From the IMG/VR virus record IMGVR_UViG_3300045988_078326: a DNA stretch of 64,000 nucleotides; one strand, written 5' to 3'. This stretch comes from a virus. The notes beneath the pieces are model-generated. The model saw nothing but the letters and a program-made list of their open reading frames with translations, made no database searches and had not been told where the DNA came from. A program made the translations under genes and the position numbers. Below, piece after piece: positions 47,646 to 47,720 of the stretch. Position 1 is the stretch's first letter. Each line of letters begins with the position of its first letter.

Positions 47646-47720
47646 TGCGGAGTAGCGTAATGGTTAGCGCAGGGGTCTCTAAAACCTCGGGAGTGGGTTC
47701 GAATCCCACCTCCGCTGCCA
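47646..47720 (+). tRNA. amber suppressor tRNA, anticodon CUA (47679-47681), Gln-like body
   Basis: Acceptor TGCGGAG/CTCCGCT (weak 1:72), D-arm GCGTAATGGTTAGCG and anticodon stem AGGGG closely resemble the tRNA-Gln(UUG) at 38744; anticodon loop CTCTAAA; G73; T-arm GTGGGTTCGAATCCCAC; GCCA. Confidence 0.75.

Follow-up and report, generated by a model that had tools for sequence, protein, structure and literature searches.

In one well-defined group of genes of the phage represented by IMG/VR record IMGVR_UViG_3300045988_078326, TAG serves as an ordinary Gln codon that exchanges freely with CAA and CAG, as alignments with its relatives show. The 64,000 nt stretch of DNA that was analysed (hereafter the window) also contains a tRNA gene with anticodon CUA, tRNA(CUA), at positions 47646-47720. 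It is considered highly probable, from sequence comparison, that the phage employs genetic code 15, and that TAG is read as Gln by the phage-encoded tRNA(CUA) after charging by the host; translation of the TAG-containing genes may thereby be timed. Reassignment of TAG to Gln with a dedicated suppressor tRNA had been proposed in a first-pass annotation of the window, and is borne out by the predominance of Q in TAG columns, a 41-bit lead for Gln, the alternation of TAG with CAA/CAG, and the conservation of the tRNA.

TAG as a glutamine codon

Relatives of the phage were sought in IMG/VR. At least 123 were found for the terminase large subunit (TerL) and 206 for a DUF2828 protein, and 160 loci were taken for comparison. 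The TerL homologues contain from 0 to 13 in-frame TAGs. At the 12 columns in which the terL gene of the window has TAG, Q was observed in 496 of 688 informative cells (72%), as compared with a background of 3%, and columns 66, 224, 381 and 416 hold exclusively Q or TAG. When all window genes with relatives were considered, Q was found in 1319/2457 informative cells of the TAG columns (54%, again against 3%), so that the alignment of TAG to other residues, which had been named beforehand as evidence against reassignment, was not the pattern obtained. Q was also the residue at 25 of the 34 TAG positions with a clear majority residue. K and E were next commonest, as expected for Gln substitutions.

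A Codetta-like score (mean BLOSUM62 per position, 68 positions) yielded 80.4 bits for Q, 39.0 for E and 34.6 for K, placing Gln ahead of the runner-up, Glu, by 41 bits and of Lys by 46 bits. Among 23 relatives with TerL identities of at least 80%, TAG alternates with CAA/CAG in 21 of 22 variable TAG columns. The base following TAG is distributed as is the base following CAA/CAG (p = 0.87), and TAG thus behaves like an ordinary codon; a suppression-friendly context for TAG was rejected for the same reason.

It had been suggested that TAG falls on a conserved Gln in both FolD and Ung. This holds in part for FolD. PDB alignments place Q at the first TAG, that of the motif GNxIYI, in the two bacterial structures that match best, and N in human FolD; the remaining FolD TAGs lie in variable columns. 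It does not hold for Ung. The four best PDB matches have Q, S, V and R at the TAG position, so that Gln is not strictly conserved there.

For at least 16 genes, the open reading frame (ORF) exists only when TAG is counted as sense. These are long ORFs with in-frame TAGs and neither TAA nor TGA, and they include terL, a sigma-like gene, folD, ung, two endonuclease genes and tail fibre genes (among them three with 1, 3 and 3 TAGs); the first-pass annotation had correctly listed terL, folD, ung, tail fibres, two endonucleases and regulators. Conserved coding sequence continues across every TAG in up to 80 relatives. The TAG-containing genes are as follows.

2-1480 (-): terL, terminase large subunit, 12 TAGs; runs off the window start (tblastn, alignments)
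1480-2655 (-): phrog_3314 gene, 14 TAGs, the last followed directly by TAA; TAG columns 55% Q in relatives
2661-3707 (-): gene labelled 'sigma factor' in PHROG, 9 TAGs, C-terminal zinc ribbon (phrog_5767, E = 2.7e-38)
3835-4173: small gene upstream of folD, 3 TAGs
4160-4951 (+): folD, methylenetetrahydrofolate dehydrogenase/cyclohydrolase, 6 TAGs (Pfam PF02882 and PF00763, PDB FolD alignments)
7067-7519: gene with one TAG, aligned to Q; an exception within a TAG-free run
18478-18867 (-): gene for a small helix-turn-helix (HTH)-like protein, 2 TAGs (weak HTH_36 match, below the Pfam cut-off)
24601-26155 (+): two one-TAG genes, for a 257-amino-acid protein and ung, uracil-DNA glycosylase (25442-26155; Pfam UDG)
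27866-28813 (+): endonuclease-like gene with repeated zinc ribbons and a DUF2726-type C-terminus, 10 TAGs (Pfam)
30655-31176 (+): HNH endonuclease gene inside the tRNA array, 4 TAGs (weak Pfam HNH_2 match just below the cut-off)
41720-46198 (+): tail-fibre module of five genes, with 1, 2, 1, 3 and 3 TAGs (PHROG tail fibre/tail protein)
48146-48358: one-TAG gene, an exception in a TAG-free block
54871-55122 (+): 83-codon gene with 7 TAGs, embedded in a TAG-free block

The terL gene contains 12 TAG, 0 TAA and 0 TGA in 493 codons. No Pfam match was obtained for it, and its identity derives from tblastn matches to annotated terminases (52% identity to the annotated TerL of Enterococcus phage H1) and from weak PHROG matches. 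In the 2661-3707 gene, TAG columns are 52% Q, and a near-consensus promoter lies upstream at about 3737. Its 'sigma factor' label found no match in Pfam, NCBIfam or PDB, whether a single sequence or an 8-sequence profile was used. The folD gene would have 7 TAGs if its start were at 4127; the Pfam FolD domains cover five of its TAGs, and PDB alignments of Ung continue through the TAG in ung. In relatives, the family of the 27866-28813 endonuclease has 115 TAG versus 356 Q, and the TAGs of the tail-fibre module are common to the closest relatives. At most TAG positions of the 83-codon gene at 54871-55122, Gln is the residue found in the five closest relatives (26/35 informative cells), which suggests a recent, gene-specific gain of TAG.

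Whole-window ORF statistics were not accepted as proof of reassignment. Reading TAG as sense raises ORF coverage, but so does reading TGA or TAA as sense, because this AT-rich DNA also opens when either of those stops is ignored.

The suppressor tRNA

The suppressor, the two phage tRNA-Gln genes with which it was compared and the promoter predicted upstream of it are located as follows.

47646-47720 (+): amber suppressor tRNA, anticodon CUA (ARAGORN, Rfam tRNA, cloverleaf fold, covariation in relatives)
38744-38817 (+): tRNA-Gln(UUG), comparison tRNA (ARAGORN/Rfam)
39453-39527 (+): tRNA-Gln(CUG), comparison tRNA (ARAGORN/Rfam)
47173-47201 (+): perfect sigma-70-type promoter match, TTGACA-17-TATAAT with TG (by consensus match only)

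ARAGORN called a 75 nt tRNA with anticodon CUA at exactly these coordinates; the label 'Pyl' that it attaches is a mere name for that anticodon. The gene scores 61.6 bits against the Rfam tRNA model, which is mid-range among the tRNAs of the window, and folds into a clean canonical cloverleaf with an encoded CCA. The CCA is adjoined on its 3′ side by a ribosome-binding site and the start codon (ATG) of the following gene. ARAGORN found 31 tRNA genes and a transfer-messenger RNA (tmRNA) gene across 29.9-48.6 kb, and the full array comprises approximately 33 tRNA genes.

Many related loci have a CUA tRNA at the corresponding place in their tRNA array, upstream of the DUF2828 gene. The five closest relatives also share its setting in the window, with tRNA-Ser(UGA) on one side and tRNA-Leu(CAA) on the other. 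The cloverleaf is kept by 15 distinct CUA tRNAs of relatives: 16 of 20 pairs show compensatory changes, the CUCUAA loop does not vary, and all 15 have G73. This conservation indicates that the CUA tRNA is under structural selection and is not a pseudogene, the latter having been the other finding that would have told against the first-pass proposal.

The nucleotides of interest are the U1·U72 mismatch, G2:C71, C3:G70, G10, A37, A38 and G73, together with the anticodon loop C-U-C-U-A-A-A, the T-loop TTCGAAT, GG in the D-loop, U8-A9 and a 5 bp anticodon stem. The sequence itself shows the weak 1:72 pair and the G73 noted in the first-pass annotation. Nine of the 15 CUA tRNAs have U·U at position 1:72, three another mismatch, one G·U and two A:U, and none has G:C; the position is non-Watson-Crick in 13/15, and the unpaired 1:72 position and G73 are conserved while the rest of the acceptor stem varies.

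The features recognised by GlnRS, namely C34, U35, an unpaired 1:72 and G73, favour glutaminylation; Gln is the amino acid that amber suppressors classically receive when their first base pair is disrupted. Of the GlnRS identity features, tRNA(CUA) has C34-U35, A37, the weak or unpaired 1:72, G73, G2:C71 and G10. It resembles supE-type amber suppressor tRNA-Gln in these features, the CUA anticodon included, and differs from that type and the Escherichia coli GlnRS set in C3:G70, in A38 and in having, in place of U1:A72, a true U·U mismatch. A single anticodon mutation in either phage tRNA-Gln gene would not produce it. A tRNA-Pyl identity was rejected. The traits examined were a 6 bp anticodon stem, a 3 nt variable loop, a small D-loop lacking GG and a single base between the acceptor and D stems, and tRNA(CUA) has the 5 bp stem, GG in its D-loop and two bases (U8-A9) between those stems.

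The tRNA body had been described as near-identical to that of tRNA-Gln(UUG), a description that must be abandoned. The identity is 69.3%, no closer than that to tRNA-Leu(CAA) (70.1%) or tRNA-Met (68.0%), with tRNA-Pro at 67.5%. Among 667 tRNAs pooled from relatives, the highest identity, only 73%, is to a tRNA-Gln(UUG). The acceptor stem (GCGGAG/CUCCGC) and whole T-arm of tRNA(CUA) are those of tRNA-Ser(UGA), located 660 nt upstream (46897-46986), and its D-arm and 3′ end are similar to those of tRNA-Gln(UUG). A mosaic origin from Ser(UGA)-like and Gln(UUG)-like parts is possible.

The perfect consensus promoter lies 450 nt upstream of tRNA(CUA), and between them is a TAG-free gene for a 109-amino-acid protein (47223-47552). 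The predicted promoter, this gene and tRNA(CUA) may form a transcription unit for the suppressor. No theta/HDV-like ribozyme adjoining tRNA(CUA) was found with Rfam.

CUA tRNAs of another form were observed in some relatives. Nine distinct examples, 89-95 nt in length, have an extra arm in the variable region and a conserved YUCUGAR/UUUGAA loop (loci L086, L092/L118, L097, L127, L128, L133, L152, L157 and L158). Their cloverleaf covaries, and two of them start 0-5 nt after a tRNA-Ser(UGA). The view that they are Ser-inserting suppressors was rejected, since TAG in these loci aligns mainly to Q and a Ser signal is absent; they would be Gln-type suppressors with a type-II-like arm. Two further kinds of tRNA were noted in loci L140-L144 (e.g. 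L141, 3502-3575) and L096 (1106-1178): a conserved tRNA with an 8 nt anticodon loop and a called anticodon of 'UAAA', in the group with 7-9 terL TAGs, and, in one relative, an ochre-suppressor-like tRNA with anticodon UUA.

Distribution of TAG among genes and its interpretation

TAG is very unevenly distributed among the genes of the window. It accounts for 80 of 199 Gln codons (40%) in 17 homologue-supported genes (80 TAG and 119 CAA/CAG) and for 0 of 262 in 63 other genes (Fisher p = 8e-35). The gene set came from a simple codon-usage caller, in which starts are approximate and a few small calls doubtful. The clustering of TAG-free genes noted earlier was recovered as three runs, at 5.9-17.7 kb (a region of higher G+C content), 19.4-23.2 kb and 46.2-64 kb, two of which are delimited here.

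5937-17684 (+): TAG-free run of higher G+C content, approximately 19 small genes, mostly on the plus strand; exception 7067-7519
46255-64000 (+): TAG-free block; exceptions 48146-48358 and 54871-55122

The products of the second block include DUF2828/DUF7788, major-vault-protein (MVP)-like, RNA ligase, NAD salvage, YqeY-like, Thg1 and kinase proteins. The same division is seen in the relatives. TerL has 433 TAG versus 1180 Q and DUF2828 has 0 versus 986 (80 loci); the corresponding values are 1 versus 842 for the MVP-like family and 5 versus 405 for RNA ligase. From these counts, the split between TAG-free and TAG-using families is sharp and is conserved in diverged relatives.

The count of in-frame TAGs against terminators that had been recommended gave 80 TAGs inside the 17 genes, and the terminators of the window genes are TAA in 67 cases and TGA in 18. 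In relatives, genes of TAG-free families are followed first by TAA in 268 cases, by TGA in 87 and by TAG in 4 (4/359). TAG is thus almost never a terminator, and the window genes accordingly end in TAA or TGA.

A timing model of the code switch in recoded phages has been put forward by Borges et al. (bioRxiv 10.1101/2021.08.26.457843), and timed expression of the TAG genes is inferred for the present phage. In such a scheme, the TAG-free genes would be translatable from the start of infection. The Gln-charging system of the host, most simply GlnRS, would charge tRNA(CUA), which, once accumulated, would outcompete release factor 1 (RF1) at UAG. The TAG genes (packaging, tail fibre, sigma-like, homing endonuclease and some metabolic genes) would yield full-length protein only after the switch.

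Several observations weigh against this scheme or parts of it. If the host makes Gln-tRNA by way of GluRS/GatCAB, the charging of a CUA tRNA is less obvious. With 12-14 TAGs in single genes, suppression must be very efficient, and no gene for release factor 2 (RF2), an RF1 inhibitor or GlnRS was seen in the 64 kb window. The tRNA is not demonstrably derived from tRNA-Gln on sequence comparison, and it lacks the G3:C70 and U38 of the E. coli identity set, having C3:G70 and A38. Relatives with 7-9 terL TAGs (L140-L144) have no CUA tRNA in the syntenic 10 kb, although it may be elsewhere on those contigs. (A per-locus TAG index, which includes alternative-frame ORFs, was too noisy to correlate with tRNA presence.) TAG is used by folD and ung, neither of which is a typical late gene. 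Finally, strong sigma-70 matches precede 13 TAG-free and 6 TAG genes, a similar proportion of each class.

Near-perfect sigma-70 promoter matches number 25 in the window, 23 of them intergenic. The similarity of the two gene classes in this respect means that the window provides no independent support for an early/late split, and promoters were rejected as an independent marker of early genes. A YqeY-like protein (58626-59075) was considered as a possible Gln-charging helper and also rejected; it occurs in 4/80 related loci and in one of the five nearest relatives, and this sporadic presence indicates that it is not linked to recoding. As a separate observation, near-perfect sigma-70 matches are dense in the intergenic gaps of 6986-15190 (+), with five exact TTGACA-17-TATAAT sequences at 10.5-15.0 kb, each lying ahead of a small gene without annotated function in the higher-G+C region.

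The first-pass annotation had further suggested that TAG is confined to later or backbone genes. The partition itself is firm (80/199 versus 0/262), but restriction to late genes is contradicted by folD, ung and the endonuclease genes; besides structural genes, the TAG-using set also includes the homing-type endonucleases, the HTH protein and the 'sigma factor'-labelled gene. It is possible, though less probable than timed translation, that the phage tRNA inserts Gln at TAG while the partition is no timer, suppression being constitutive throughout infection. TAG might then be avoided for other reasons, such as a need for very high or accurate expression, exchange with standard-code genomes, or residence in a mobile accessory module. 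This view is consistent with the use of TAG both by structural genes and by folD, ung and endonuclease genes, and with the failure of promoter-like sites to separate the gene classes. The TAG-free block is, moreover, mosaic (DUF2828 proteins are 80% identical where TerL is 97% identical), accessory genes such as YqeY are sporadic, and TAG-free genes have a higher G+C content than TAG genes (0.40 versus 0.36). Avoidance of TAG is, however, kept down to 55-60% identity (0/986 and 1/843 Gln codons), which fits long-term selection better than recent acquisition, and the same pattern has been reported for independent recoded phage clades (bioRxiv 10.1101/2021.08.26.457843).

An extension of timed translation, which we regard as unlikely, would place the code switch upstream of a transcription switch and make the suppressor an old, separate tRNA lineage marked by U1·U72 and G73. 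TAG accounts for 27% of Gln codons in the 2661-3707 family across 69 relatives; the product of that gene, and hence packaging-gene transcription downstream, would depend on the level of tRNA(CUA). The suppressor would not be a mutated copy of a phage tRNA-Gln, and some relatives would have added an extra arm. As noted, the 'sigma factor' label comes from PHROG only, and predicted host-type promoters stand ahead of both 2661-3707 and tRNA(CUA).

That TAG specifies some amino acid other than Gln is very improbable. Lys or Glu (which share U35), Trp, Ser, Tyr and pyrrolysine were considered; K and E are next commonest at TAG columns, ARAGORN prints 'tRNA-Pyl', and some relatives have long-arm CUA tRNAs next to tRNA-Ser(UGA). 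Gln leads Glu and Lys by 41 and 46 bits, respectively, several terL columns hold Q or TAG alone, and close relatives exchange TAG with CAA/CAG rather than with AAR or GAR codons. tRNA(CUA) is without any tRNA-Pyl trait, and the long-arm loci align TAG mainly to Q. The proposal that the TAGs are genuine stops (decay, fragmentation or assembly errors) and that the CUA tRNA is unrelated or dead, to which the fragmented look of the genes under the standard code and the public splitting of terL of phAss-1 and EF1 entries (see below) into 'hypothetical proteins' might lend credence, is refuted by the comparative data: 80 TAGs but 0 TAA/TGA inside 17 conserved genes, conserved coding across each TAG in up to 80 relatives, and a CUA tRNA under structural selection.

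Other features of the window and comparison with known recoded phages

The tRNA array contains additional RNA elements. A full-length ROOL RNA (350 bits) occupies 38838-39433 (+), exactly between tRNA-Gln(UUG) and tRNA-Gln(CUG). These two genes are 3 nt apart in the closest relatives L081-L083, from which ROOL is therefore absent, and in L095 ROOL directly follows tRNA-Gln(UUG). It thus looks like a lineage-specific insertion in the array. The phage tmRNA (36227-36542, +) encodes the tag peptide DNDYFENYLAA (ARAGORN; Rfam 115.7 bits), and the tmRNAs of relatives have different tags. A sub-threshold match to the twister-P1 ribozyme at 33342-33399 (+) (45.7 bits, E = 2e-7, gathering score 67.2) ends 6 nt upstream of tRNA-Ser(GCU), and this candidate could be a tRNA-processing ribozyme.

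A tRNA-like gene at 39700-39818 (+) (Rfam 50.9 bits) has a 42-57 nt insertion in the anticodon arm that is conserved in relatives (L081, 767-883; L086, 1810-1922; L141, 2465-2585). ARAGORN misses it without the intron option, and also misses tRNA-Tyr(GUA) at 40092-40176. A 74 nt tRNA with anticodon UGA, a reader of a Ser codon, at 30095-30168 (+) has U1:A72 and G73 (Rfam 59.6 bits) and is without the long variable arm needed by bacterial tRNA-Ser.

Several protein-coding regions were also noted. At 48742-53080 (+), adjacent TAG-free genes encode a DUF2828/DUF7788 protein (507 amino acids) and an 811-amino-acid protein with MVP repeat and shoulder domains. Both genes are widespread in relatives, and a vault-protein-like gene is unusual for a phage. 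The region 55761-64000 (+) is an RNA-repair and NAD-salvage block with genes for RNA ligase, isochorismatase (nicotinamidase-like), PRPP-synthase-like and YqeY-like (GatB C-terminal-type) proteins, NAPRTase, NAD synthase, phosphoesterase, a Thg1-like tRNA-His guanylyltransferase and an AAA_33 kinase. An early-looking region at 5510-6568 (+) holds a microbial PARG-like (ADP-ribose glycohydrolase) gene and a peptidyl-tRNA hydrolase PTH2 gene.

Whole-phage contigs that are near-identical (about 148 kb) were binned with Oscillospiraceae, Eubacterium and Lachnospiraceae metagenome-assembled genomes. This is a weak hint to the host; the phage is a large tailed phage whose hosts are probably gut Clostridia. 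The TerL encoded on one related contig, CALWOP010000177.1 (148,971 bp), shows 95% identity. By megablast, no GenBank phage matched 40-48 kb of the window. In tblastn searches the TerL protein was 43.7% identical to that of phAss-1, 52% to those of Enterococcus phages, and 60% to that of an unannotated 12 kb faecal fragment, which is the closest GenBank record.

The standard table splits terL, the tail fibre genes, folD and about a dozen more genes, here and in more than 100 metagenomic relatives; table 15 restores the fragmented genes of both. The clade constitutes a clean comparative set, TerL varying from 0 to 13 TAGs within one lineage and some families never accepting TAG. In the TAG-using families, a quarter to half of Gln codons are TAG, which provides material for the unproven idea that recoding times late genes. 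The value of the clade is that of a well-populated group in which to follow how recoding spreads gene by gene; no new principle is involved.

Recoding of TAG to Gln (code 15) is established in the crAss-like, Lak, Garnet, Amethyst, Agate and Topaz clades (bioRxiv 10.1101/2021.08.26.457843), and has been proved by mass spectrometry in crAss-like phages (PMC9523058). Like these clades, the present phage has packaging and tail genes with in-frame TAG, alignment of TAG to Gln, a phage tRNA(CUA), a group of genes that the standard code can also read and preferentially recoded homing endonucleases, and its close relatives differ in the extent of recoding. Unlike in those clades, recoding here extends to folD and ung. 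The window has no release-factor or synthetase gene, and the lysis genes lie outside it. Members of the 'Agate' clade have genomes of 154 ± 27 kb, a mixture of codes 11, 15 and 4, and recoded homing endonucleases (bioRxiv 10.1101/2021.08.26.457843); the related contigs described here, of about 96-201 kb, are similar in size, in their likely Firmicutes host and in mixed codes among relatives.

A further comparison is with phAss-1, a human-gut siphovirus-type phage of about 136 kb, and the proposed Phassvirus group, gut phages of 133-138 kb with 28-36 tRNAs and TAG in terL and tail genes, re-annotated with table 15 (PMC10607447; OQ749652). Phassvirus genomes have two or three tRNA-Sup(CTA) genes each and predicted hosts among the Clostridia, members share 80-86% nucleotide identity, and Enterococcus phage EF1 is a non-recoded relative of phAss-1 (PMC10607447). 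The present phage is like phAss-1 in its tRNA-rich array, its CUA tRNA, its TAGs in terL and tail genes and its probable Clostridia hosts, and the relation of phAss-1 to EF1 matches the TerL matches obtained here. It differs in having one CUA tRNA in the window rather than two or three, and the low TerL identity (43.7%) implies a different genus of the same broad kind. Taken together, these comparisons identify the phage as a new example of established code-15 recoding and not as a new phenomenon.

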